From Phycisphaerales bacterium (GTDB lineage: Bacteria; Planctomycetota; Phycisphaerae; Phycisphaerales; SM1A02), in assembly GCA_029242715.1 (NCBI GenBank), contig JAQWTL010000002.1:7445-71444 (forward strand): 64,000 bases of DNA, written 5' to 3'. Below are positions 51,333-64,000 of this stretch, one piece after another. Numbering within the stretch: position 1 is the stretch's first letter; each line of letters opens with the position of its first letter. The translations under genes were made by a program, and so were the position numbers. A model generated the notes under the pieces. That model was not told where the DNA came from. It did not search any database and was given only the letters and a program-made list of their open reading frames with translations.

Positions 51333-52439
51333 TCAGTTCGAGGGTTCAGAAACCAGTAATCGAATGGCCTGCTCGACAAGGAGATAGTCCTGGTTGCGCT
51401 GGGACTGCTCAGGATCCTTGGTCGGGTGGAAGACGGGACCAGGGTGAACAAACCGAATAATTCCATCTTCATCGACGAGGATGCTCACGCTGGTCGCCCC
51501 GCGATCACCGGACGCCAGGTACGCCCGCTTGAGTTCCGACCAGTCCAAGTCAACGGCAACATCACCGCCGTACTTGAATTTCTTGGCCGCAGCGAGAATG
51601 ACTTCATCCGTCTCCGGATGTGGTGGTTTGGGATGATAGACCGCAACGGTACGAAGGCCCGCCTTGCCATACTTCTTCCGCAGGGTTTCGATCGCAGGCA
51701 GGCTGGCCTCACACCACGGACAGGCATCAGTCCACCAACGGTACAAGGTTGCTTTAGGTTTCTTTGTGATCGAAGTTCCCTGTCGTGCCCAGCGATCTGG
51801 TTTCAATGAGGGAAATTTCTTTCCAATGAGATCCTGGCCACCTCGGTCTGCTGGCAACGTCTCAATCTCGACGCTTTCCTTTGCTTTCACGGGTTCCAGA
51901 AGCAGCGCATCGATGACTTCTTTGCCTTGAGCAGGAGAGATATGAAAGTCGTTGTATCGAACGATGCCATTCCGATCAATGATGATGGTCCAGGGCGTCC
52001 CTCCTGTTCGATATGAACGCATCAGTCTCGAGGGCTTTCCAGGCCTCCCCGAATGCCCGATCGGAATATCCAACTCATACCTTTCACCCGTCGATTTCGC
52101 CTTGGCCGGGGTATTGGTTGTATAGCCTTCAAAGACTGTCTGAACAGCCACGAAAGCGACCTTGTCATTGCCTTTGTATTTCTCAATGAGGGCCTTCAAG
52201 GTCGGGAAGCCACGAGAATGACAACCCGGGCACCAGGATTGGAAACCATACAGGTAGATCACCTTGCCTTGAAGGTCGCTGACATCCAGATCCTGAGATC
52301 CCTCAGGCAGGTTGAACCATTCGTCAACTTGCCATGCCGGAGCTGGACGTCCTCCAATCCCCCGTGATTGTGCCAGGACTTCAGTCGTGAGCACAGGGAG
52401 CAAAGACAGGACGAAGAGCGTTATGAACCATCGAGCCAT
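51333..52439 (-). CDS. secreted protein with two thioredoxin/TlpA-like domains
   Basis: Signal peptide. Two redox motifs: YGFQSWCPGCHSRGFPTL and RWWTDACPWCEASLPAIETL. Confidence 0.75.
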   Translation of the reverse strand: MARWFITLFVLSLLPVLTTEVLAQSRGIGGRPAPAWQVDEWFNLPEGSQDLDVSDLQGKVIYLYGFQSWCPGCHSRGFPTLKALIEKYKGNDKVAFVAVQTVFEGYTTNTPAKAKSTGERYELDIPIGHSGRPGKPSRLMRSYRTGGTPWTIIIDRNGIVRYNDFHISPAQGKEVIDALLLEPVKAKESVEIETLPADRGGQDLIGKKFPSLKPDRWARQGTSITKKPKATLYRWWTDACPWCEASLPAIETLRKKYGKAGLRTVAVYHPKPPHPETDEVILAAAKKFKYGGDVAVDLDWSELKRAYLASGDRGATSVSILVDEDGIIRFVHPGPVFHPTKDPEQSQRNQDYLLVEQAIRLLVSEPSN

Positions 52440-52599
52440 GTGGAATCTCCATGTGCCTTAAATGATCGTAGCGTGCCAAGGCGTATCTATGGCAAGAAGA
52501 AGCAGGATGTAGTCCATATCCGCTTCCTCAAGAAAGATGTAATTGCCCTCTCAGGCATATGAACTGGCGGAAATCCGAAGAACAACTGATGATGCTTTA

Positions 52600-53256
52600 A
52601 TGAGCACGGACCCCACCCAGGAAACCATCCTGACATACGAAGGCATCGCCGAGTACTACGCTACTGTGGAAGACGATCCTGAACTGCGAGCGTCCATACG
52701 GGATTTGCTTGGACCAGCGCATCCTGGAAAAAAAATCCTGGAAGTCGGATGCGGTCCTGGCATTGATGCTGCCATTCTCAAGTCAAAGGGATTTGATGTC
52801 ATCGGCATCGATCTTTGTGAAGCCTTCATCGATCGAGCCAGACTCCGGTATCCAGAAGTCGACTTTCAACTGATGGATCTGCGCGCACCTGACTTCAAGG
52901 ACAATGAATTCGATGGAATCATTGCGATGGCCTCACTTGTACATGTTCTTCCAGAAGACATCCCAGCAACAATCGAACGGTACCGGCTGCTTCTCAAGGA
53001 TGGTGGCCGATTTGTGACATGGATGAGTGATTCGCCAAAAGTCGAGTACTACGACGTTCCAGACTGGGGAGGCGCTTCAACCCGCTTCCTTCGCATGTGG
53101 TGCCATGACAGGAGCATGATTTCCAACTCCATGACTGATGCTGGTTTTAGCCATGTGAGAATTCTTCAGGTTCAATCCGACTACTACAACCGCATGACCC
53201 GTATTCAGGACAACGAGGTCTCCCTGTATGCCATTGTTGGCACCGTACCAGGCTGA
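52600..53256 (+). CDS. class I SAM-dependent methyltransferase
   Basis: Motif I: KILEVGCGPGIDAAIL. Post-I: DVIGIDL. The track start 52543 is a non-ATG codon; ATG 52600 (MSTDPTQ) is preferred. Confidence 0.75.
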   Translation: MSTDPTQETILTYEGIAEYYATVEDDPELRASIRDLLGPAHPGKKILEVGCGPGIDAAILKSKGFDVIGIDLCEAFIDRARLRYPEVDFQLMDLRAPDFKDNEFDGIIAMASLVHVLPEDIPATIERYRLLLKDGGRFVTWMSDSPKVEYYDVPDWGGASTRFLRMWCHDRSMISNSMTDAGFSHVRILQVQSDYYNRMTRIQDNEVSLYAIVGTVPG

Positions 53257-53360
53257 TCCAGATCACCCTAGATCTCAATCAGAATTTGAGTGGATAGCAG
53301 GGGTTTCCGGAAAACCAATGCATGGCTGATGTTTGCCTATCGAGCCAATCCTGGTCGATT

Positions 53361-53408
53361 AACAAACAGCTGCGACAAGCGAGGTCCCCTCCAGGCCTCG
53401 CTTGTCGC
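53361..53408 (-). terminator. Rho-independent terminator for the PEP-CTERM-like gene
   Basis: Perfect 13-bp stem GCGACAAGCGAGG / CCTCGCTTGTCGC (53372-53384 / 53396-53408), 12 nt after the minus-strand stop. The minus-strand downstream sequence is AGCTGTTTGTT. Confidence 0.5.
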
Positions 53409-53419
53409 ATGCTGAGTAG

Positions 53420-54136
53420 TCATCTCCGTCGACGTCGGCCTCCGGCCAATGCTGAGATTCCAAGCAAAGCGATGGCTGATGGCGCCGGAACTGGTGTTCC
53501 GAAACTCACGTTGTCAACTGACCAGGGAACCAATTCGCCATTCAATCCAAATGCAGAGGAATATCCCGATAGGTTCAACTGCCCCCAAGGGGCGCTGGTG
53601 GGACCCGATCCAAATGTCGTGAACTGGCCAACCAGAATCTGGTAGTTCGCCATCCCGGGCATGATCTGGCCAAAGGCGTGCAGATCGCCAACTGGCCGAT
53701 TCCATTCACCTGCTGCAATAAACAGATCATTGCCAGAATTGAAATCAGACCAATTGATTCCAGTACTCGTCAAAGTAGCGCTTTCAGAAGCCCATTCGGC
53801 CCCAATGGTGACCCAACTGTCATATTCAATCTCTGGCTCAAAAGGAACAAACCCCTGATTGATCTGTGAAGACATTTGACCGCCAATGGCGTTTTGATAG
53901 AAGCCTCCACTGGAAATGATGGCTCCCACAGTTGGGTTCGCACCTCCGACACTCGTGAGTTGATCTGATGGATCATCAAACTCAGCGTACAACCGCCAAG
54001 TGGTGGTCCCGTTCAGCGTAGCGATACCATTGCCATCAACTGCGTGTTGCTCAAGATTTAGGCCAACCAATGAGGCTGTGGCCACTCCAGGCAGTACCAG
54101 TAACTGGGTAATCACCAGTGATTGAAGTCGAGTCAT
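53420..54136 (-). CDS. PEP-CTERM-like sorting-domain protein
   Basis: Internal ATG giving signal MTRLQSLVITQLLVLPGVATA. C-terminus GTPVPAPSAIALLGISALAGGRRRRR = Pro-rich motif + TM helix + Arg cluster. It has VPAP rather than the canonical VPEP. Confidence 0.65.
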   Translation of the reverse strand: MTRLQSLVITQLLVLPGVATASLVGLNLEQHAVDGNGIATLNGTTTWRLYAEFDDPSDQLTSVGGANPTVGAIISSGGFYQNAIGGQMSSQINQGFVPFEPEIEYDSWVTIGAEWASESATLTSTGINWSDFNSGNDLFIAAGEWNRPVGDLHAFGQIMPGMANYQILVGQFTTFGSGPTSAPWGQLNLSGYSSAFGLNGELVPWSVDNVSFGTPVPAPSAIALLGISALAGGRRRRR

Positions 54137-54521
54137 TGTGTTGTTGCTCCTTGCACGGGGACTCTGTCTATTACGTGCCCCCATAGGTACTTGGTTGGCC
54201 ATGAGCAAATATGTCAGATAACCTCCAAAATTCCATCCATGACCAGATGATTCAGTGACAGGCCCATGTCTCTAAACTTCTTGATAATGAGTAGATATGA
54301 CTAGCGACACAGCCATGCCAGCCATTGAGCAATCCAAGCTGCCAACGAACATGAGGCTTTAGTGCGGGTCATGATCGCACCAGGCCTCATGTCCTTGCAT
54401 GAATCGTGAGCCAGGATCAAGAGTCAAGCATGCACCCCTGGGACAGCCCGCGATTGGTCGAAGTGTCGTACCACTCATTCTGGCTTGCCATGTCTTGGTA
54501 GATCGCATGATTGCGGATACA

Positions 54522-54562
54522 GCCGCCGACGATCCCGACTAAACATCGAAATCGTCGGCGGC
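54522..54562 (-). terminator. hairpin downstream of the S8 protease gene (possible terminator)
   Basis: 12-bp stem GCCGCCGACGAT / ATCGTCGGCGGC with a 17-nt loop, about 30 nt after the minus-strand stop. No clear U-tract. Confidence 0.3.
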
Positions 54563-54594
54563 CACTTGCCTTCTAATCACAGCCCCATGACTCG

Positions 54595-57270
54595 CTAGCA
54601 CCCCCCAGCCCAGCAAGCCAGGACAGCCAGGATGTCCTCCACATCAACGACGCCGTCACCATTGAGATCCTCGGGACAGCCTTCACAATCCCCGAAGGCG
54701 TTCAAGATCGCAAGGAGATCCTCAACGTTGACCTCACCATCACCATTGACATCACCAGCAGCCTGGCAGGAGTCCGGGATGTTGTCCTCGTCGGCGTCGG
54801 TGCAGGTATCAGCGAAGCAGTTCACACCCATGTCATTGAAGGGGCCAGTGATGTGGTCCGGTGTGTTGTCGCAGAACACACTCCAGGACACATCAGGTGC
54901 CGCCCAGTCGAGTGATGCGATGGCGCCACCGTACCAACCCTCACCAGCGATATTACCTGAGAAGCGGCAATGCTCGATCACTGAATGACCACCATCGATA
55001 TGCATGGCTCCACCCTGTTCATCCGAGACATTGTCGGTAAAATGGCATCGCTGCAGTTGCAGGTCGTTACTGCTGATGACCAGCGCCGCACCGCGTCGTC
55101 CAGTATTGGACATGAAGTGCGAATCAGCGATCGCACCCGTACCTGAACCGCTGCCACTACTCGTCAAGTCAATTGCACCAGCGGAATTGGATGCCGAATT
55201 ACGATTGAACAGACAGTCAGCAATGTCAAGATTCTGAACACTGGCCCAGATACCGCCGCCATACGCAGAATCGTTGAGCTCCAGATAGCAGTTGTCTGCC
55301 TCAAGGGAGTCCACGATGGCATACAGACCACCACCACTGAACTCTGCGGTGTTCTCTTTAAACGAGCAATCCTGCAATGCTGCCTGCATTCCTTCAGCGT
55401 GAATGGCACCCCCGGTACCCGTCGCATGGTTGTTCAGGAAGCGACAGTTCTTGACCACCAGGTTGTCGCCAGAAAAGAACACGCCGGCCCCTCTCTGTGA
55501 CCAGCAGTCCTGGATTGTGAATCCGTCTATCGTGAGATCACCGTTGTTGCAGACGATGCAGCCTGACAATCCGCCGCCATCAATAAACGTGAACATGGGG
55601 CCATCAGTACTTTGGATCACCAATGGCTTGTTACTGGAATACACACCATCCCAAGTGCCAGGCCCTACCAGGATTCGATCGCCAAGTTGAGCCGCATCCG
55701 CAGCTTCCTGGATAGTGGCATATTCCCAAGGCACAAGGAGATCAGATTCACCACCACCAAGCGCATCAATACAAGCCATCAGGTCAGGCAGAGGACCAAT
55801 ACGCTCTTCCTCGATCGGAATACCAAACTGTGATTGCTGTGGCTGGCCGGATAGTTGCAAACGCCATTTCAAACCTGCAGGTGAAAGTGGTGATCCGAGA
55901 TTCGCCTTGCACCAAGACTGCACCAGGATGCAGGCACCAGCAACGATGGGTGAAGCTCCAGATGTACCACCGAAGTCATCGCGATACTCGCAACCAGAAA
56001 CTGACCAGATCGTGCCTGTAGAAGAAGAGGATGGACCAGTCGTGACGATATTGTCACCCCATCCCTGGAGATCGACCGTAGATCCAAAGTTGGAAAAACT
56101 ACTTCGTGTTCGGTCCATACCAAACTTCCCGGATCGTCCTGCACCAACGATGATTGCGCCGGAATCACGCTCCGCCAGAAAGGGCCAGTGCCCATCGTTG
56201 ATTTTCCCAAGATATGGAATTTCAAGCGAATACAAAGGATCGTCAAGATCTTCCCTGCCGTTACCGGCAGCTTCAACAACTACCCTGCCATTAGCGGTTG
56301 CAATCCGAATCGCGTGATAGTTCGGCTCGAACCATTCCACAGGGATAAGACCAGCCTGCGTATTACTATTGGGATTGAATCGAGGGCCGGCAGTCTGAGC
56401 CTCCAGCAGGATGACATCACCAGGATTCATCGTGGCGCCAGCTTTCAGGATCGCAAAATCGATACCCAATCGGAGACCAGGAGTCAGCCTGATGAAGGAT
56501 GGATGAAAATAGGTTTGATCAACACCATGAGCAACACCCGTTGTCCCGACAGAATCGTCAAGGGCAACAACTTGGCCGATCGTAGCGGTTCCATGATGAG
56601 GCCCGAACGCACTGTATTGTGGCCCAAGCGATGTGACCGCCGGGAGGTCACAGTGACCGTCTCCGAATTCGTACTCGATGTCACAGAACTGAATACCCTG
56701 CCCGGTAATACCGTAGACATTCCAGATCGCATCTGCCCCGATCCCATTGTCAGCAGTTGAACCCAGGTACTCTTGATCTGACTCATAGTCAGGCTGTCCA
56801 ACAAATGGTTCATTCACCACCATTGGAACAGGAATCGCCTGAGTCACCCATGCCAATTCCCGTGCCGCCTCGATGGCTGCCCAGGTGTCCGTGCCACCCT
56901 GAAGTCTGACGTAGACACCCTGCCAAGGCTTGGGAATCGACTGCTGCAAGGTCGCTTCTGCGGTTGCATGCATGTCGGACAGGACTTCCAGATCCAGATC
57001 ACCGGTTGCACTCGTCCATTCGGCTCCAATCATCAATGGAATATGGTCTGGCATGCCCGGCAAACTGAGGCCCTCCATGGCCTCATCAGGGGGAACGCCG
57101 TCTGCGAAATGGAGATACATCAGACCCGGCTCATGGCCGGGATGCATACCGATTACAGGCCATTCATTGGGATCATCATTTTGACCTCCAAGAGCCATCG
57201 GACTTGCAAGAGAAACGGTCGTCAATAGAACAGCCAACGGCCTCCAGGCCGTACGTGAATCGCGTGACAT
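54595..57270 (-). CDS. secreted subtilisin-like (S8) serine protease with beta-helix repeats and C-terminal dockerin-like domain
   Basis: Catalytic motifs: QFCDIEY (Asp), GPHHGTATIG (His), EAAGNG (oxyanion Asn), GGTSGASPIVAG (Ser). Then PbH1-like repeats (VVKNCRFLNNHATGTGGAI, LQDCSFKENTAEFSGGGL, IADCLFNRNSASNSAGAI, LQRCHFTDNVSDEQGGAM, IEHCRFSGN). Tail: DVNGDGEVNVEDLLAILNAFGDCEGCPEDLNGDGVVDVEDILAVLACWAGGC. Confidence 0.8.
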   Translation of the reverse strand: MSRDSRTAWRPLAVLLTTVSLASPMALGGQNDDPNEWPVIGMHPGHEPGLMYLHFADGVPPDEAMEGLSLPGMPDHIPLMIGAEWTSATGDLDLEVLSDMHATAEATLQQSIPKPWQGVYVRLQGGTDTWAAIEAARELAWVTQAIPVPMVVNEPFVGQPDYESDQEYLGSTADNGIGADAIWNVYGITGQGIQFCDIEYEFGDGHCDLPAVTSLGPQYSAFGPHHGTATIGQVVALDDSVGTTGVAHGVDQTYFHPSFIRLTPGLRLGIDFAILKAGATMNPGDVILLEAQTAGPRFNPNSNTQAGLIPVEWFEPNYHAIRIATANGRVVVEAAGNGREDLDDPLYSLEIPYLGKINDGHWPFLAERDSGAIIVGAGRSGKFGMDRTRSSFSNFGSTVDLQGWGDNIVTTGPSSSSTGTIWSVSGCEYRDDFGGTSGASPIVAGACILVQSWCKANLGSPLSPAGLKWRLQLSGQPQQSQFGIPIEEERIGPLPDLMACIDALGGGESDLLVPWEYATIQEAADAAQLGDRILVGPGTWDGVYSSNKPLVIQSTDGPMFTFIDGGGLSGCIVCNNGDLTIDGFTIQDCWSQRGAGVFFSGDNLVVKNCRFLNNHATGTGGAIHAEGMQAALQDCSFKENTAEFSGGGLYAIVDSLEADNCYLELNDSAYGGGIWASVQNLDIADCLFNRNSASNSAGAIDLTSSGSGSGTGAIADSHFMSNTGRRGAALVISSNDLQLQRCHFTDNVSDEQGGAMHIDGGHSVIEHCRFSGNIAGEGWYGGAIASLDWAAPDVSWSVFCDNTPDHITGPFNDMGVNCFADTCTDADEDNIPDSCQAAGDVNGDGEVNVEDLLAILNAFGDCEGCPEDLNGDGVVDVEDILAVLACWAGGC
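54598..54762 (-). other. dockerin-like double EF-hand module ending in WAGGC
   Basis: AAGDVNGDGEVNVEDLLAILNAFGDCEGCPEDLNGDGVVDVEDILAVLACWAGGC. Confidence 0.6.
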
Positions 57271-57458
57271 GTTTAGGGCTCCTTATCAAGACGTCACCAC
57301 ACACTGGACAACGTCTCGCTCAAGAAAGAGGCTTTGACAGCCCGCCTGACACTGCGATTTGGAATTTGTGACAACATGACAAACTATCAAAAATGCCTCC
57401 TGTCTACTGACAGGATCCGAATCCGGATGACAACACCTCGGCAGAGCCCACAACAGAA

Positions 57459-57498
57459 CCCGTGGGTGGTCCCGGACGACACCGAGACCACCCACGGG
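57459..57498 (-). terminator. strong hairpin, candidate terminator of the small ORF 57541..57678
   Basis: Perfect 13-bp stem CCCGTGGGTGGTC / GACCACCCACGGG with a 14-nt loop. The minus-strand downstream sequence is TTCTGTTG. Confidence 0.4.
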
Positions 57499-57540
57499 TG
57501 GAATAAGACAAGTTTGTAACGGACACTCGCAGTTCAGCAG

Positions 57541-57678
57541 TCACCCTGCCGGCAGTTGATCAAAGCTATCCTTGTTGTCTGCCCCGTACACAGCGGTCGA
57601 TTCAATTCCTGTGCAAACGATTGATGCAATAAGTGACATGGTCAACATGGCGCCGACCCGACTGGTTCTGCTCAGCAT
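57541..57678 (-). CDS. possible small secreted peptide (45 aa)
   Basis: Internal ATG of track ORF 57541..57729, preceded by AAGGGAA about 7 nt upstream. Sequence: MLSRTSRVGAMLTMSLIASIVCTGIESTAVYGADNKDSFDQLPAG, i.e. a signal-like N-terminus plus a polar tail of about 20 aa. A hairpin follows it. Short, so low confidence. Confidence 0.3.
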   Translation of the reverse strand: MLSRTSRVGAMLTMSLIASIVCTGIESTAVYGADNKDSFDQLPAG

Positions 57679-58181
57679 GTAAGTTCCCTTATCTTGCTTT
57701 GAATTGGAAGATTGATTCCCTGAAACCAACCTTCCCTATGCAGTTAATCAGCAGATATGTGACTTACTTGTCAGCGGGGATTTGAATTTGCACGTGAAAC
57801 CACTCAGGCACTTCCAGAGGCCATTTTTGGTCAATATCAGGAAATTCTCGAATCCATCTGACAGACATACCTGTCAGATACTGATGCATATATGGATACG
57901 AAAGTCTCGTATCCAGGAACTGCAAGCCCAATTGGCCAAAGTTCCGTCGCATGGGAGACGGTCATAGAGCCTGCATGGCTCAGACCTGCTGAAATCAAAG
58001 CCCTCAAATCAGCCCGGCTCAGGCCGATAGCTGCCAGTGGCACTGCAGCCTGCTGGAACCGTATTGCCCTCACAAAGTCGACTGCCGACTTCAAATGAAC
58101 ATGCATAGCTCGGGAGCTCCCGCAACTCAGCGCGCCCCGGATGTGACATGGAGTATCTGTGCAGAAAAGGAGAACCAAGAG

Positions 58182-58913
58182 ATGTTGATGAAAATTGTGG
58201 CAAGTATTGCCCTTGTTACCACCATCGCAGCCGTCACCACGACCACGTGGAGTCGCGAGAACGATGAGTTTGACGGTATTGCCAAAGGAGGTGTTCTTTT
58301 CAATGGAACGCTACTGGAAGCACCGTTTATTGTGCGATTTCAGGATGAACTTCTGACAATCAACCAAGCTGAAATTGGAAAAGTGGAGACCGTCGATATA
58401 ACGAGCGAGCAATACTCACTCGATACCATTGATGGTGTTATCCAACAGGCCTATACGATTCATGATGCAATCATGAAAGTGTCAGGCAAGAATACGGCGA
58501 TCAAATCAACAATCAATACCCTTGTTGCCAGTCCTCTTGTTGATTCTGCCATAGTCAACGGTGACGCTATTGATGTTCAATTCAAAGGAGAAGAGTTTGT
58601 TGAAGTCCTCATGTTTGACTTTGACAACCGTAATCAAGATCTGGAATTGAACCAAGTCAATTTTCTGAAGGAACGCCAGCAGATGATCAAGTACTTCTTA
58701 AATGAAGATCGCATGGTCATACTTCAAGATGGCATTCTCGTCATCACGGAACCTGGCTCCGCAAAATCCAAAGTTGATGAACTACGTTCTGCATTATCTG
58801 ATGGTGTTGATGAACAAGAACGCCGAAAACAACTTCTTAAGATTATTCCCGACCAATTAGTTGCAAATCGTGTCGCTCAGACGCTTAAAGACAATGAGGA
58901 GGCAACTCGATGA
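58182..58913 (+). CDS. membrane-anchored protein of unknown family, cassette copy 1 (small partner)
   Basis: ATG 58182 sits 9 nt after AAGGAG. N-terminal anchor: MLMKIVASIALVTTIAAVTTTTW. It aligns with 62050..62808 (blocks ...RMVILQDGILVITEP..., ...LLKIIPDQLVANRVAQTL). Its stop overlaps the next ATG (ATGA). Confidence 0.6.
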   Translation: MLMKIVASIALVTTIAAVTTTTWSRENDEFDGIAKGGVLFNGTLLEAPFIVRFQDELLTINQAEIGKVETVDITSEQYSLDTIDGVIQQAYTIHDAIMKVSGKNTAIKSTINTLVASPLVDSAIVNGDAIDVQFKGEEFVEVLMFDFDNRNQDLELNQVNFLKERQQMIKYFLNEDRMVILQDGILVITEPGSAKSKVDELRSALSDGVDEQERRKQLLKIIPDQLVANRVAQTLKDNEEATR

Positions 58914-61606
58914 AATCCTTCTCCAAACAAGTTGTTTTCTTACTCACGATCGCAATGATGACGATCGCATCCGCAACAGTCAACGGCGCAAATAGAACAC
59001 CGGGTGACGACAAGGGTGCTGACCATACCGCCTTCTATTTTGGGCCTTATGACTGGTCTGGCTTTACCAAATATGTCCCATACAAAACTCATGTTTGTAG
59101 TGGCGGCGGAATGGGCCAACAATACTCCGCTTCTTTTTATCAGGAGATGTCTGCACCAGCTTCCACTTCACAAGTTTGCACAATCGCAAGCTTTCACAGT
59201 TTGATATCTAATAACAATCAGTCTTTAGCGACCTTACTCATTGATACTCACGGCAGTACAGGATTTATGGCAATTGAAAGCTTTGCCAAAACTCCTGCCG
59301 GCAGAGTTGCTCGGGACCTGCGATATAACAAGTACATCACAGGCAACTTTCCTGGAGCCCCAACGTTTTTGGCGTCTGATCTGGGACGTGGCTCAACTCA
59401 CGACTCACATTGCATCAGCATCAGATCAAGCTTTATCACTCGCTACGCGAACGTCCCTTCCAGCCTGGTGTATAACTCGAGCTGTAGCGGCGCAAGCCTG
59501 AATGCCACATGGGTCGCTGCAGGCGCACGTGTCTCACTAGGATATTCCGGAACTGTCCAATCAGGCGTAGCCTACGCAGGTGTAAAAACGTTCTTTTCGC
59601 GCATGGATGGCCAGGCAGGAATCACGAACCGACCGGTTTCAAAAGCCCGTGCCGGAGTCGCACAACTGTCAGTATCAGGCAATGAGGCTACAACCTTGGT
59701 TCCAGCCGTTCTATCCGTAAATGCCCCTTGTCCGATTCAAGTTGGTGACAAGGTGACCTACACCATGGATACAGAATGCGAACAAGCCATTCCAAGCGAA
59801 GTTATTGGAATCAATTGCACAATCGAAGGCGAAGTATGGTTGTCCAAAACTACGCTCCAGGGAACGTGTACCGCAGTACAGGGAGATGGAACTTTCTATG
59901 GATTGAGATTGGAATGGGGATCAGTCTGGAGTGACTGGAATATTGCTCATCTCGATGGCAATACCGTGCCCCCAGTCAATGCCAAGGGCAGGGCCCATGA
60001 TGATCACCTCATATATAAATCATGTCCGCAAGTATGCATTGGTGATTACGACAATGACACCTCTGTCAACATTAACGACATCCTAGCCATCCTCAGTGAT
60101 TGGGAAATCACCGGAATCGATGTTCTCCTCGGAGCACTCGACAACTGGGGCTCTGACTGCCCAACTGGCGCATGTTGCACTTATGAGTATTGCATGTCAG
60201 ACGTGAGTCCCGAAGAATGTGAATATTGGGATGGCGTCTATCAAGGTGATGATTCGACCTGTGACACGACCGTATGTTCTTCAAATGGAGCCTGCTGCTT
60301 CCCGCCCTATGACTGCGTGGACAGCTTCCCTGAACTCGAATGCTATGAACTTGGCGGAGATTTCTATGGGCCTGGTTCAACATGCAACAGCAATGACTGC
60401 TGGAGCTATCCCCTCGGTGCCTGCTGTTATGAAGATGGCACCTGCACCCCTGATGTTACAGAGGTCGATTGCTTGAACAGTGGCGGCTTCTTCATGGGGC
60501 TTGACTCCACCTGCGATCTTTGCGACGTGTATGATCCCATTGGTGCTTGCTGCGTTGATCTCGGAGATGGCAACGAGTGCTATCAGCTCTCCGAATTCGA
60601 TTGCACACTTTTCAATGGCATGTTCATCAGCGTGGGCATCAGTTGCGATGAAGTTCCTGAATGTGCCCCAACTGGCGCCTGCTGTGTTCCTGTAGGTGAC
60701 ACACCTTCATGTTATGACGCAGTGACACAGGATCTGTGTGAAGGCGGCAGTTGGTTTGAAGGCCAGACCTGCGAGGACATCAATTGGGAATGCACACCTC
60801 CTTGGGGCGCGTGTTGCCTGCTAGACATCAATGCGTGTCTGGATGGCTTCAGTGAAATCGAGTGCAATCAAGAAAATGGTGTTTTCTACGTGGAAACGAC
60901 CTGCAGCGATGTCACTTGCGAAGGCACTATTGGAGCCTGCTGTGTTGGCCCAGATTGCTACGTCATGACTGCATGGCAATGTGGCGAACTCAATGGCGAT
61001 TACCTGGGAGACTCGACGGATTGCAGCGGTACCCCTTGCCAAGAGCCTCCTGGCACAGGTGCTTGCTGCATCTATGACGGCATGGGGAATGGCTCATGCA
61101 CACTCACGATTGAAACTGATTGTGACGAAGTAGGCGGCCAGTACTATGGTGATGGCACTGGATGCAATGACATCCTTTGTGATGTCATACCGGTCGGTGC
61201 ATGCTGCTTCACGAATGGCGACTGCATGGACAGCATTGACTTGAATGAGTGCAAGGCCATGGGTGGCATCTTCCAATCAGACGCTGATTGCAACGGGACA
61301 TCCTGCTTCCCTGACAGCGGCGCCTGCTGCTGGTCGGATGGCACATGCTCAGACAATGTCGGTTCAGAGGATTGCACCTATGCCGGCGGTTTTTTCTATG
61401 CAACTAATAGCTGCATAGATGCTCCATGTGACGTCCCCGTTGAATGCCCCAATGGCGAAATCGAGGACTGCAACGGTAATTGCTTTCCAGCGAACTGGGT
61501 AGGCGATGGCATCTGTGATGATGCAACAACATGGGACGCTGTGTTCAATTGTCCGGAGTTCAACTGTGATGGAGGCGACTGCCCTCCGGAGAATTGCGGC
61601 GGTTAA
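58910..61606 (+). CDS. giant secreted Cys-rich protein, cassette copy 1: conserved His/Cys N-terminal domain + single dockerin-like loop + 10 GACC six-Cys repeats + LNR-like module
   Basis: Signal peptide: MKSFSKQVVFLLTIAMMTIASATVNGA. N-domain motifs: TPGDDKGADHTAFYF, LLIDTHGS, VYNSSCSGAS, FFSRMDGQAGITNRPV. Dockerin-like loop: CIGDYDNDTSVNINDILAILSDWE (60035-60106). See the repeat and LNR features for the rest. Confidence 0.75.
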   Translation: MKSFSKQVVFLLTIAMMTIASATVNGANRTPGDDKGADHTAFYFGPYDWSGFTKYVPYKTHVCSGGGMGQQYSASFYQEMSAPASTSQVCTIASFHSLISNNNQSLATLLIDTHGSTGFMAIESFAKTPAGRVARDLRYNKYITGNFPGAPTFLASDLGRGSTHDSHCISIRSSFITRYANVPSSLVYNSSCSGASLNATWVAAGARVSLGYSGTVQSGVAYAGVKTFFSRMDGQAGITNRPVSKARAGVAQLSVSGNEATTLVPAVLSVNAPCPIQVGDKVTYTMDTECEQAIPSEVIGINCTIEGEVWLSKTTLQGTCTAVQGDGTFYGLRLEWGSVWSDWNIAHLDGNTVPPVNAKGRAHDDHLIYKSCPQVCIGDYDNDTSVNINDILAILSDWEITGIDVLLGALDNWGSDCPTGACCTYEYCMSDVSPEECEYWDGVYQGDDSTCDTTVCSSNGACCFPPYDCVDSFPELECYELGGDFYGPGSTCNSNDCWSYPLGACCYEDGTCTPDVTEVDCLNSGGFFMGLDSTCDLCDVYDPIGACCVDLGDGNECYQLSEFDCTLFNGMFISVGISCDEVPECAPTGACCVPVGDTPSCYDAVTQDLCEGGSWFEGQTCEDINWECTPPWGACCLLDINACLDGFSEIECNQENGVFYVETTCSDVTCEGTIGACCVGPDCYVMTAWQCGELNGDYLGDSTDCSGTPCQEPPGTGACCIYDGMGNGSCTLTIETDCDEVGGQYYGDGTGCNDILCDVIPVGACCFTNGDCMDSIDLNECKAMGGIFQSDADCNGTSCFPDSGACCWSDGTCSDNVGSEDCTYAGGFFYATNSCIDAPCDVPVECPNGEIEDCNGNCFPANWVGDGICDDATTWDAVFNCPEFNCDGGDCPPENCGG
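60167..61444 (+). repeat. ten tandem ~42-aa six-cysteine 'GACC' repeats (protein-level)
   Basis: Each unit fits G-A-C-C-x(3-8)-C-x(7-8)-C-x(2-4)-G-[GDM]-x-[FY]-x(4-7)-C-x(3-5)-C. Examples: GACCYEDGTCTPDVTEVDCLNSGGFFMGLDSTCDLCDV, GACCFTNGDCMDSIDLNECKAMGGIFQSDADCNGTSCF, GACCWSDGTCSDNVGSEDCTYAGGFFYATNSCIDAPCDV. The nucleotide sequences are diverged. Confidence 0.8.
61445..61603 (+). other. Notch/LNR-like Cys-rich module at the C-terminus
   Basis: CPNGEIEDCNGNCFPANWVGDGICDDATTWDAVFNCPEFNCDGGDCPPENCGG. It fits the LNR pattern C..C...W.GDG.CD....N C....C DGGDC. Confidence 0.6.
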
Positions 61607-61632
61607 GTCAACCGTCTTGAATTGAACTGAAA

Positions 61633-61666
61633 ACAACTGCCGGTTCCCTTGGGAGCCGGCAGTTGT
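61633..61666 (+). terminator. strong hairpin separating the two cassette copies
   Basis: ACAACTGCCGGTTCC...GGAGCCGGCAGTTGT forms a stem of about 14 bp (one G:U pair), 27 nt after the stop. The U-tract is weak (CATTGTC). Confidence 0.5.
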
Positions 61667-62049
61667 CATTGTCGCAGGCTCAAGAGCATGAACCTCAGGG
61701 CCACAGGGCTGTCAGCACCCCGGCCGTGACCGCTGCAAAGATCACACCATGTGTGATGGTCTTGTCATTACATCCAGAGACTTTGAATGAAATTTAAATG
61801 AGCAGGTAATGAATTCCCACTGCCAAGAGATCTTGGTGGCAGACCAGACATTCCAGGAATTGAACAAGTGATGGCCAATGTATGAAAGGCCTGTGAAAGC
61901 CCTTTCAGAAGGTTCTCTTGGAAATCTGACAAATTTCCCGACTTGAACTGACAGAACACCACGATTTCCGCAAGAAGAGGATTGGAGGCCCCGTTTAGTT
62001 TTTGTGCTCTGTGGGAAAATTTGCCCTCTTGCGTATATGGGAGAGTCAC

Positions 62050-62808
62050 ATGTCAAAGCGCTATCAATGCGCTGTCGTCGCCACGATCGGATCGATCGTG
62101 GTCCTCACGACAGCATCCTTCAGTTGGTGGGCCCCGGCCCCAAATGCCCCGAAATCAAACATCAATACTGGTGCCCTGGTCCTGGATGGCACCGAAATCG
62201 CGAAGCCCTTTGATATTGGAATTGAAGGCGACCAGGTCCAGGTCAACGGTCAGGTGATTCTTGAGGTCACTCCACCGGCCCCGGCCACGCCCGAGGTGTA
62301 CGACCTCGATACAGCCTACGGCGTCATCAGCAATGCCATGGAGCAGTACGCCATCATCCAGAGCGACCGAGGCGTCGACGCGGCCTCCGCCAGTACGTTG
62401 AAACTCCTCCGCGAAAGCGAACTCGTGGATTCGGCCCGGTCCTTGAACTCGGGCACATTCGAAGTGTTTCTCAAAGGTGACCCGTATCCTGAAATCCTCG
62501 AGCTTTCCGGCGAGCGGTCAACACCCGTGGGATCCGCAAGTGCTCGACAAGCTCTCCGTGAACGTCATGTCGCCATCGAGAACTTCCTCCGACAAGGTCG
62601 GCTGGTCGTGCTCCAGGACGGCATTCTCGTCGCAACCGAGCCGAACACCGCTGATGAGCGGATCACTGCCATTCGAGACGCCTCGGACCCCGACCTGGGC
62701 CTTGCCCAGCGGCGGGAACTGCTGCAGTCGGTCATTCCCGACGCATTGGTAGCGGAGCTGCTCGCAAACCGGCTACAGGCTGACAGCGGAAAGGTGGTGC
62801 AGCCATGA
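62050..62808 (+). CDS. membrane-anchored protein of unknown family, cassette copy 2 (small partner)
   Basis: ATG 62050 is preceded by GGGAGAG. N-terminal anchor: MSKRYQCAVVATIGSIVVLTTASFSWW. Paralogue of 58182..58913. Its stop overlaps the next ATG (ATGA at 62805-62808). Confidence 0.6.
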   Translation: MSKRYQCAVVATIGSIVVLTTASFSWWAPAPNAPKSNINTGALVLDGTEIAKPFDIGIEGDQVQVNGQVILEVTPPAPATPEVYDLDTAYGVISNAMEQYAIIQSDRGVDAASASTLKLLRESELVDSARSLNSGTFEVFLKGDPYPEILELSGERSTPVGSASARQALRERHVAIENFLRQGRLVVLQDGILVATEPNTADERITAIRDASDPDLGLAQRRELLQSVIPDALVAELLANRLQADSGKVVQP

Positions 62809-64000
62809 GTCGATTGACACAACTCATCACAATAATCGCAACAGCAGCGATGATCTCCACGCTCAGCATGGGAGCCAACAGGGAAGACCAGGGGCCCAAC
62901 AAGACCCCTGGTGATGATGTTGGCTCTGACCACACTGGATTTTCCTTCAACTGCTACCAGTTTGCAGGAACAGGTGATGGCGGAGCCTTTGCCAAGCACG
63001 TCGGCACTGGCGGCAGCAAGGCCGGCCAGCAATATGCCATCAGTGAATATGTCCAGACTTCTTCAGGAACAAATGTTCCAGCACCCTGTACTGTCTTGAC
63101 TTTCTACAACATCATTCATCACAACAAGTACACCCTTGCGGTACTTCTTCTCAACAGCCATGGGGGCAACAACAGCTCTTCGATTGAACCTTTCGAGAAG
63201 ACACCTGCAGGCAAGGCTGCACGTGACGCTCGCTACCAGGCCTACCTCAACGGAAATGTATCGGGCTGTCCAGCCTTCACTGCATCCGAAATCTACAAGA
63301 GCGCGAATCATGATGCCTGGGCTGTGGGCATCACGGATGAGTTCATTCGCAATCATGGCAATATGAATCAAAGCCTTGCCTATGTCGCGTCCTGCTACGG
63401 AAGCTCACTGACGGATGACTTTGTTGCAGCTGGCAGCCGTGTCTCGGTCGGATACACCGATTCGGTGTTCATGCATGAAGTAACCGCATCCATCAAGAAA
63501 TTCTTCGCTCGGATGGACGGACAGGAAGGAATTGCCAATCGTCCCGTAGCCAGAGCGATGGTCGGCCTTCCTGCAACATTGGGTTCAACAGGAAACACCG
63601 CTACGACACTCACACCTGCCGTCAAGAAACTGGATGCCCCCTGCCCGATCAATGTCGGAGACACGGTGACCTATACACTCGACACTGATTGCGAGCAGGG
63701 AATCACTCCGAACATCGACGGATTCAACGTGACCATCGAGAATGAGATCTGGTTGAGCAAGACGGAACTGCAGGGCACCTGCACAGCCATTGGCAATCCA
63801 ACGTCCTACTCCCTGATCTTGGAGTACGACAAAGTCTACAGCGATCAGAACGTCGCCCTGCTTGATGGAAACCTCAAACCGTTTCTCGTCAATGCCCACG
63901 GACCAGCCCATGACAGTTACTGGGAAGCCAGATCATGCCCGACAGTCTGCGTTGCCGACATGAACGGCGACTCGGTGGTTGATATTGCCGACCTCCTGGC
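62805..64000 (+). CDS. giant secreted protein, cassette copy 2 (partial; continues beyond window end)
   Basis: Not in the ORF track because it has no stop in-window. My hand translation from ATG 62805 is open to nt 64000: MSRLTQLITIIATAAMISTLSMGANREDQGPNKTPGDDVGSDHTGFSF...LLLNSHGGNN...YVASCYGSSL...FFARMDGQEGIANRPV...APCPINVGDTVTYTLDTDCEQ...WLSKTELQGTCTA...CPTVCVADMNGDSVVDIADLL. It is collinear with 58910..61606. Confidence 0.7.
   Translation, partial: MSRLTQLITIIATAAMISTLSMGANREDQGPNKTPGDDVGSDHTGFSFNCYQFAGTGDGGAFAKHVGTGGSKAGQQYAISEYVQTSSGTNVPAPCTVLTFYNIIHHNKYTLAVLLLNSHGGNNSSSIEPFEKTPAGKAARDARYQAYLNGNVSGCPAFTASEIYKSANHDAWAVGITDEFIRNHGNMNQSLAYVASCYGSSLTDDFVAAGSRVSVGYTDSVFMHEVTASIKKFFARMDGQEGIANRPVARAMVGLPATLGSTGNTATTLTPAVKKLDAPCPINVGDTVTYTLDTDCEQGITPNIDGFNVTIENEIWLSKTELQGTCTAIGNPTSYSLILEYDKVYSDQNVALLDGNLKPFLVNAHGPAHDSYWEARSCPTVCVADMNGDSVVDIADLL

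Follow-up and report, generated by a model that had tools for sequence, protein, structure and literature searches.

We report the analysis of two tandem gene cassettes lying at the downstream end of a 64,000-nucleotide stretch of a Phycisphaerales genome (contig JAQWTL010000002.1 of assembly GCA_029242715.1; the whole stretch is referred to below as the window), each of which consists of a small gene followed, on the same strand, by a large one. The N-terminal domain of the first large protein (large1) very probably has the clan CD (caspase/gingipain-like) fold, as judged from its predicted structure, and carries a His-Gly...Cys dyad that is conserved throughout its family. Homologues of the small gene adjoin the enzyme gene in several other lineages and are fused to it in two relatives. 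On balance we favour the view that each cassette is a split zymogen, in which the pro-region of a new peptidase of clan CD fold is encoded in trans.

The first-pass annotation of the window had recognised no named family for the small protein or for the ~370-residue N-terminal region of the large one, and in this it was correct. Scans of both small and both large proteins against Pfam and NCBIfam returned nothing meaningful, and sequence and profile searches of the PDB with alignments A1, A2, A4 and A7 and with the Cys-rich tail gave no real match. Faint matches to Phage_T4_Gp30_7, a fimbrial-like model, the ML domain and VASt lie far under the cutoffs and were rejected, as were PDB matches to a nanobody and to CARM1, which we ascribe to chance. 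The region that had been considered of unrecognised kind is nevertheless resolved, by AlphaFold2 (AF2) and Foldseek, into a clan CD domain and an immunoglobulin (Ig)-like domain. An AF2 model calculated from a two-sequence alignment had a predicted local distance difference test score (pLDDT) of 27.7 and was discarded; that calculated from an alignment of 32 family members has a pLDDT of 95.9 and a predicted template modelling (TM) score of 0.93. When this model is compared to the PDB with Foldseek, all six matches at E <= 1e-3 are clan CD enzymes, as are most of the top 30, the best being RgpB (4ief), SAVED-CHAT (8tl0), the CHAT anti-sigma protein DdvA, separase, legumain and the Craspase component Csx29, and the alignment to the catalytic and Ig-like domains of RgpB extends over 368 columns. 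The comparisons yield a fold for the large protein, and neither protein is placed in a named sequence family.

Clan CD enzymes are alpha/beta/alpha sandwiches around a sheet of six strands, in which b3 is followed by a small beta section before a3 and the catalytic His, with a Gly beside it, lies at the C-terminal end of b3 and the catalytic Cys at that of b4 (PMC4357240). The predicted large1 structure is a six-stranded sandwich of this kind, its elements running b1-a1-b2-a2-b3-(His-Gly)-small hairpin-a3-b4-(Cys)-a4-b5-a5-b6, with the beta section in its place between b3 and a3; His114 follows the strand formed by residues 106-112, and Cys192 that formed by residues ~186-190. In 73 diverse full-length members of the family (numbered as the large1 precursor) these residues are conserved at 99% and 96%, respectively, as are Gly115 at 92% and Glu123 at 93%, and in the local motifs one hydrophobic strand leads into HG (LLIDTHG) and another into C (LVYNSSC). 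The His, Gly and Cys positions are retained in both copies in the window. Across the family, an N-x-T-P-G motif begins the mature protease domain directly after the signal peptide (58985-59002 and 62892-62912 in the window); its Thr30 is 75% conserved, and the motif is kept after the linker in the fused protein P0097, described below.

On the strength of the modelled fold and dyad, we consider it probable that the enzyme is catalytically competent, and protease activity, which in clan CD goes with strict P1 specificity, would be the expected outcome. Clan CD, however, also includes transpeptidases, among them the T9SS (type IX secretion system) sortase PorU, the GPI8 transamidase and the legumain ligases, and nothing in the fold and dyad data separates hydrolysis from transpeptidation, such that the domain could instead be transpeptidase/sortase-like or a ligase, with the small protein as its adaptor, substrate-presenting partner or pro-region. 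That many family members bear T9SS sorting domains and that one gene pair lies beside a Peptidase_C25 gene would suit such an enzyme, though no candidate substrate motif was identified and the N-terminal, pro-region-like fusion found in two relatives fits a zymogen at least as well; we regard this alternative as unlikely.

An exhaustive profile search of 1.84 billion representatives identified 201 clusters related to the large N-terminal domain at E <= 1e-3, of which 38 reach E <= 1e-30, where a word-indexed search of 5.8 billion proteins found one fragment. The large1 protein itself is absent from the word-indexed results, though small1 of the same NCBI metagenome-assembled genome (MAG) was returned; the deposited record may leave the large1 gene unannotated or treat it as a pseudogene. 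The tails of family members vary, encompassing T9SS C-terminal domain (CTD)/FlgD_ig, Laminin_G_3 and Kelch/PKD, which are typical of secreted or surface proteins, and also a dockerin-like segment with Cys repeats. Neither the window proteins nor 32 family members have a Pfam match to Peptidase_C25 (PF01364) at E <= 1, and hhalign comparison with a C25 protein encoded beside one homologue gave a non-significant E of 0.28, although the aligned stretch covers the His motif; a single one of the 32 members matches CHAT (PF12770), and only at E 0.097. Since the predicted fold and dyad are those of clan CD, while the sequence tests for C25 and CHAT fail, the ~370-residue region is, on the model, a new sequence family with the clan CD fold, an intact dyad and an Ig-like domain, and the enzyme is best described as a new family within that clan with a gingipain-like order of domains.

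The small proteins, small1 and small2, each have a single N-terminal hydrophobic segment by hydropathy, and in distant homologues and in the fusions this segment resembles a cleavable signal peptide with AXA-type sites, from which we infer that the small protein is exported. The first-pass annotation had called it anchored; the segment is indeed there, but it may be a cleavable signal peptide. A profile of 17 small-family sequences matched nothing in Pfam, NCBIfam or the PDB, and the word-indexed search with the small protein recovered nine clusters only, all from marine Phycisphaerales-type MAGs. Judged from sequence, this is a new, putatively exported family without known relatives, in which the invariant residues are G42, N61 and L173 only.

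In the Phycisphaerales loci L001, L002, L003/L004, L005/L006 and L007 (loci and proteins recovered in the searches carry L and P numbers), the small gene is followed by a gene of the large family, always with an ATGA overlap, and in each a divergent S8-dockerin protease gene lies upstream of the small gene. Taken alone this could be inherited synteny, and the word-indexed homologues of the small protein, which come only from Phycisphaerales-type marine MAGs with the whole neighbourhood in common, would agree with an adjacency of no functional meaning, due to chance or to synteny among close relatives. The flanks upstream of distant family members were searched with small-family profiles, using hmmsearch and hhalign, and a small homologue directly precedes the protease gene in L012 (hhalign 98.3%, E 2e-14; gap of 43 nt), in L011, a Krumholzibacteria contig (hhalign 93.6%, E 2e-7; gap of 13 nt), and in L014, L016, L017/L018 and L020 (hmmsearch E 6e-23 to 1.5e-10), the junction being ATGA in L014 and L020, a gap of 3 nt in L016 and a wider one in L017. 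Six or more additional lineages thus have the partner, and one of these belongs to another phylum. The co-location in other genomes that the first-pass annotation had proposed as a check is accordingly found, mostly with ATGA overlaps or gaps of 3-43 nt.

In two relatives the small module is fused N-terminally to the protease: P0011, of 1143 aa (hmmsearch E 5.8e-16; hhalign 97.4%, E 1.1e-11 over 200 columns), and P0097, of 1318 aa and with a Kelch/PKD tail (hmmsearch E 1.9e-8). Each fusion has just one signal peptide, together with a linker rich in Pro, Gly and Ala, and no second signal peptide precedes the protease part. P0011 occurs at the same length in at least five independent Phycisphaerae assemblies, and its gene neighbourhood is unrelated to that of the cassette. 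An N-terminal extension of P0033 that resembled the middle of the small protein by eye was not counted (hhalign E 0.12), and a 210-aa gene in L011 is unrelated. Twelve independent loci have upstream sequence available, and the partner is separate in eight of these, fused in two and missing from two. Six further lineages with unrelated neighbourhoods, together with two fusions, contradict the inherited-synteny explanation, and we give a meaningless adjacency almost no credence. Since the protease plus Ig-like unit is the only domain common to all partnered and fused proteins, the pairing is ancient, functional and tied to the enzyme rather than to its tail.

This last point bears on the roles suggested by the first-pass annotation, which proposed an anchor, chaperone or inhibitor paired with a surface effector such as a protease. 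A chaperone or inhibitor of a protease fits the fold and the fusions, and the anchor becomes the least likely of the three because it is the protease domain, and not the dockerin-like/Cys-rich tail, that the partner accompanies. The single hydrophobic segment of each small protein, the Ca-loop/dockerin-like segment of the large ones and the near-threshold GC-type dockerin of the neighbouring S8 protease could be put together as a cohesin-like membrane anchor or receptor that tethers the large protein by its tail. Yet partners accompany family members that lack a dockerin or a Cys-rich tail (L011, which is of T9SS type, L012, L014, L016, L017 and L020), in P0097 the module is joined to a protein whose tails are Kelch/PKD, the signal peptides of distant homologues are of the canonical, cleavable kind, the small family shows no similarity to cohesins in Pfam and PDB searches and the dockerin assignment is itself sub-threshold, all of which makes tethering improbable. 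Still less likely is that the genes belong to a polymorphic toxin-like system as a toxin-immunity or effector-immunity pair, in spite of their tight linkage, the secretion and variable tails of the large protein and its duplicated, diverging paralogues. Such systems have a variable toxin at the C-terminus and a cytoplasmic immunity gene downstream, where here the conserved enzyme domain is N-terminal and not a swappable C-terminal toxin, the partner gene lies upstream, its product is exported and in two relatives forms one polypeptide with the enzyme, and no recombination cassettes lie downstream in L021, a related contig. Nor was any PADLOC or toxin-family evidence encountered, though none was looked for.

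A model for the split zymogen can be drawn by comparison with RgpB of Porphyromonas gingivalis (family C25, clan CD; 4IEF), the best structural match to large1. The two have in common a caspase-fold domain with a His-Gly/Cys dyad, an Ig-like domain directly after it, C-terminal surface-targeting modules and secretion. RgpB is held latent by a 229-residue N-terminal prodomain that inhibits the enzyme (PMC4357240), and the mature small protein, at ~220 aa, is of similar size; the fusions show the small module in just this N-terminal, pro-region position. The differences are that the window proteins have no detectable similarity to Pfam Peptidase_C25; that the His-Cys spacing of large1 is 78 residues, owing to an inserted hairpin and helix; that the window encodes the pro-like module in a gene of its own, the fused form being confined to P0011 and P0097; that the small family has no conserved Arg/Lys pseudo-substrate like Arg126 of the RgpB prodomain; and that the window tail is dockerin-like with Cys repeats rather than a T9SS CTD, which other family members do have. 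The remaining structural matches (SAVED-CHAT, Craspase Csx29, DdvA, separase and legumain) have the fold and dyad topology in common with large1, but those enzymes work in the cytoplasm, as signalling or defence proteases under the control of nucleotides, RNA or partner proteins, whereas the large family is Sec-exported and has surface-type tails.

According to this model, the large gene would yield a Sec-exported enzyme whose first ~240 mature residues form the clan CD domain with its dyad, followed by the Ig-like domain, a Ca-loop/dockerin-like segment, a disulfide-rich stalk of ten repeats and an 8-Cys end module, these last parts presumably holding or displaying the enzyme at the cell surface. 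Translation of the small gene just before the large one, from the same mRNA and across a four-nucleotide ATGA overlap, would supply the partner along with its client. The exported module, as the detached counterpart of an N-terminal pro-region, may bind the protease domain in the periplasm and act as a folding (steric) chaperone, as an inhibitor that maintains latency or as both, to be released or degraded once the enzyme has reached its destination. By analogy, a pro-region-like chaperone or inhibitor is the role that we lean towards, by a little, for the small protein. The fuller proposition is one we hold to be evenly poised: that a new clan CD family has a pro-region, conserved from Planctomycetota to Krumholzibacteriota, that is now an independent, coupled gene encoding an exported chaperone/inhibitor of new fold and that interconverts with fused forms. 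We know of no described counterpart among clan CD enzymes, and this would be, to our knowledge, the first trans-encoded clan CD prodomain.

The functional logic, at least, has precedent. The gene for the lipase foldase Lif follows that for the lipase, in an order opposite to small-large, and we are aware of no fused Lif-lipase forms. Lif/LipH is a separately encoded, membrane-anchored steric chaperone of lipase that is classed with the propeptides of proteases (PMC3352829, PMC7046727, PMC13381987). As in the Lif/LipA pair of Pseudomonas and Burkholderia, the partner here is separate, exported and N-terminally anchored or signal-bearing, its gene is co-transcribed with that of a secreted hydrolase and it would assume the role of a covalent propeptide. 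The resemblance is one of functional logic only, since the sequences are unrelated, with the Lif signature Rx2FDY(F/C)L(S/T)A absent from all 17 small-family sequences, and the client of Lif is a lipase, not a cysteine peptidase. A small partner gene also adjoins the gene of a secreted cysteine protease in the staphostatin/staphopain and Spi/SpeB pairs, where the partner is thought to curb premature activity; there, however, the inhibitors are cytoplasmic, the targets have the papain fold (clan CA) and the proteases keep their own propeptides, whereas in the present case the partner is exported and the enzyme has the predicted clan CD fold.

Several observations count against a split zymogen of clan CD fold. 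The Foldseek TM-scores to clan CD structures are modest, at 0.32-0.39 on the query length, as ~30% of the query is the Ig-like domain and there are insertions besides, and the sequence-level links to C25 and CHAT fall short of significance. Within the family, the protease domain usually begins right after the signal peptide. No PDB chain, the RgpB prodomain included, shows detectable sequence similarity to the small family, whose alignment contains no invariant charged or basic residue fit to act as a pseudo-substrate. Finally, the partner gene is absent from at least two loci, L010 and that of an extra paralogue in L003, and is therefore not universally required, and many family members have no partner altogether.

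The coordinates of the cassettes and of the neighbouring features are collected in Table 1. The ORF list confirms the first-pass description of two consecutive same-strand copies (58182-61606 and 62050 onward), with ATGA stop/start overlaps at 58910-58913 and 62805-62808, and at both junctions a Shine-Dalgarno (SD)-like motif lies inside the 3' end of the small gene. Translational coupling of this sort may fix the stoichiometry of the two products. L021 carries a small2 identical to that of the window and so supplies the complete second copy, in which large2 is ~877 aa long, and it holds no third cassette downstream, leaving two copies only. At 898 and ~877 aa the large proteins hardly merit the description 'giant' that they were first given.

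Table 1. Features of the two cassettes and of the adjoining S8 region, in window coordinates
Feature	Position	Strand	Remarks
small1	58182-58913	+	243 aa; ORF and SD; NCBI hypothetical protein P0002 of Phycisphaerales MAG
large1	58910-61606	+	898-aa secreted multidomain protein; signal peptide aa 1-~25
large1, predicted clan CD-fold (caspase/gingipain-like) catalytic domain	58988-59704	+	aa 27-~265; AF2, Foldseek, conservation
large1, candidate dyad	His114 59249-59251 (then Gly115); Cys192 59483-59485	+	codons checked
large1, predicted Ig-like beta-sandwich domain	59705-60025	+	aa ~266-372; all-beta, model residues 241-345
large1, Ca-loop/degenerate dockerin-like segment (DYDNDTSVNINDIL...)	60035-60154	+	aa 376-415; read from sequence
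large1, ten tandem ~42-aa six-Cys repeats	60167-61438	+	repeat parsing
large1, C-terminal 8-Cys module (CPNGEIEDCNGNC...GDGICDD...NCDGGDC)	61439-61603	+	55 aa; read from sequence
Hairpin after large1	61633-61666	+	perfect 15-bp stem; terminator candidate; same hairpin after large2 in L021
Conserved non-coding leader/promoter region upstream of small2	61741-62049	+	nucleotide comparison with L001
small2	62050-62808	+	252 aa; small1 paralogue; orthologue of single-copy partner gene in related MAGs
large2	62805 to beyond window end (64000)	+	5' 398 codons within window
large2, predicted clan CD-fold domain	His119 63159-63161; Cys197 63393-63395	+	followed by Ig-like domain and start of two-loop dockerin-like segment
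S8 subtilase with beta-helix repeats and C-terminal GC-type dockerin	54595-57270	-	divergent from cassette
62-aa ORF	57541-57729	-	aligns to residues 1-45 of L001/L002 S8 protease, tblastn E 7e-6

That the cassettes arose by tandem duplication, as the first-pass annotation held, is clear from alignments far above chance: small1 and small2 are 31% identical (E 2e-31) and the large N-terminal domains 47% identical over 399 aa (E 3e-116), and the blocks that it quoted as common to the paralogues are present in both comparisons. It is copy 2 that is orthologous to the lone pair of related MAGs, with 43-57% identity between the small proteins and 60-66% between the large N-terminal domains, and copy 1 is a divergent paralogue pair (28-31% and 45-52%, respectively), with orthologues elsewhere in P0003 (74%) and P0001. 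The 3' ends have a different history. Window positions 61321-61700 take in the last ~286 nt of the large1 coding sequence, its stop codon and, with the hairpin, ~94 nt of 3' flank; they match the large2 3' end in L021 (5507-5886) at 98.9% identity, against ~47% protein identity elsewhere, which argues for recent gene conversion there; the duplication itself is, to judge from these identities, ancient except for this homogenised end.

The hairpin between the copies, which had also been noted from the outset, holds up on folding, the 94-nt region reaching -37.1 kcal/mol (z = -3.84) with none of 200 shuffles as good. Upstream of small2, the leader region and the S8-small intergenic region of L001 (7406-7710) are 81% identical across 313 nt, more than the adjacent coding sequences at 69-75%. 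This region could be a long leader with structure, or could hold dense regulatory sequence common to the divergent S8 and cassette promoters. An Rfam scan of 57200-64000 found no match, and scans for sigma-70 promoters and T-tract terminators gave counts at or below shuffle expectation.

The tail of the large protein can be read in some detail. Its Ca loops number one, intact, in large1, as first described, and two in large2 (by eye, in L021) and its orthologues, and two Ca-binding loop-helix repeats are what defines a type I dockerin (PF00404), but the term 'dockerin-like' is only tentative because Pfam matches are absent for large1 and sub-threshold in relatives, Dockerin_1/EF-hand scores being 11-13 bits for large2 orthologues and the Dockerin_1 score 21.2 bits for P0011, against a cutoff of 22.9. 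The six-Cys repeats follow the pattern GACC-x5-7-C-x7-C-x3-GG-x-F/Y-x-G-x3-C-x4-5-C, and repeats of the same type occur in P0001, P0011, P0013 and the L001/L002 orthologues. Neither the repeats nor the 8-Cys module, which is identical in large2 of L021, has a Pfam family or a PDB sequence match; the repeats appear, from their sequence, to form an unnamed stalk, rich in disulfides, in surface proteins of the Phycisphaerae, and the 8-Cys module has a presumed likeness to the Notch/LNR repeats.

The first-pass annotation also suggested that the cassettes belong to one extracellular-surface locus with the S8 protease. This agrees with their linkage in all Phycisphaerales relatives, in which the S8 gene is syntenic with the cassette, but the S8 gene is not found with the pair in other lineages. 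The S8 protease may have some part in activating the enzyme; its GC-type dockerin match is near-threshold (26.8 bits, cutoff 29). The block at 51333-57270 (-/+) that precedes the cassette is syntenic with L001, L002 and L005 and encodes a secreted double thioredoxin-like protein, an S-adenosylmethionine (SAM) methyltransferase, a PEP-CTERM protein (53420-54208) and the S8/beta-helix/GC-dockerin protease. What had been taken for a candidate small secreted peptide between the S8 gene and the cassette is a 62-aa ORF in frame with the S8 gene and separated from it by a stop, a hairpin with an 18-bp stem (57458-57499, -) and ~270 nt. The present S8 gene starts at 57270 with a different signal peptide, and this ORF appears to be what a rearrangement or insertion has left of the 5' end that the S8 gene first had, signal-peptide region included. 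In L003 (1-7804; GCA_022446795.1) an extra, P0013-like large paralogue of 1156 aa, itself without a partner gene, lies beside the small and large pair, and two S8-like genes lie upstream. In L011 (1-8048) the pair is directly downstream of a 1297-aa Peptidase_C25 gene and the unrelated 210-aa gene, an arrangement that suggests a cluster of protease genes.

These results define two protein families that are unnamed in current databases, an enzyme of ~200 clusters and a partner that ordinary searches miss. They provide the former with a testable biochemical assignment in which His114 and Cys192 are the residues to mutate, and they give a rule for annotation, namely that the partner can be recognised as the small gene of an exported product lying immediately before the protease gene. 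We do not claim a new principle, and the interest will lie chiefly with specialists in proteases and in the Planctomycetota. For them, the natural split and fused forms offer a system in which to study how folding and latency are governed by the pro-regions of caspase-fold enzymes and how a prodomain comes to have its own gene. As candidate surface or extracellular proteases of abundant, uncultured marine Phycisphaerales, these enzymes may also bear on the processing of proteinaceous organic matter by these organisms.

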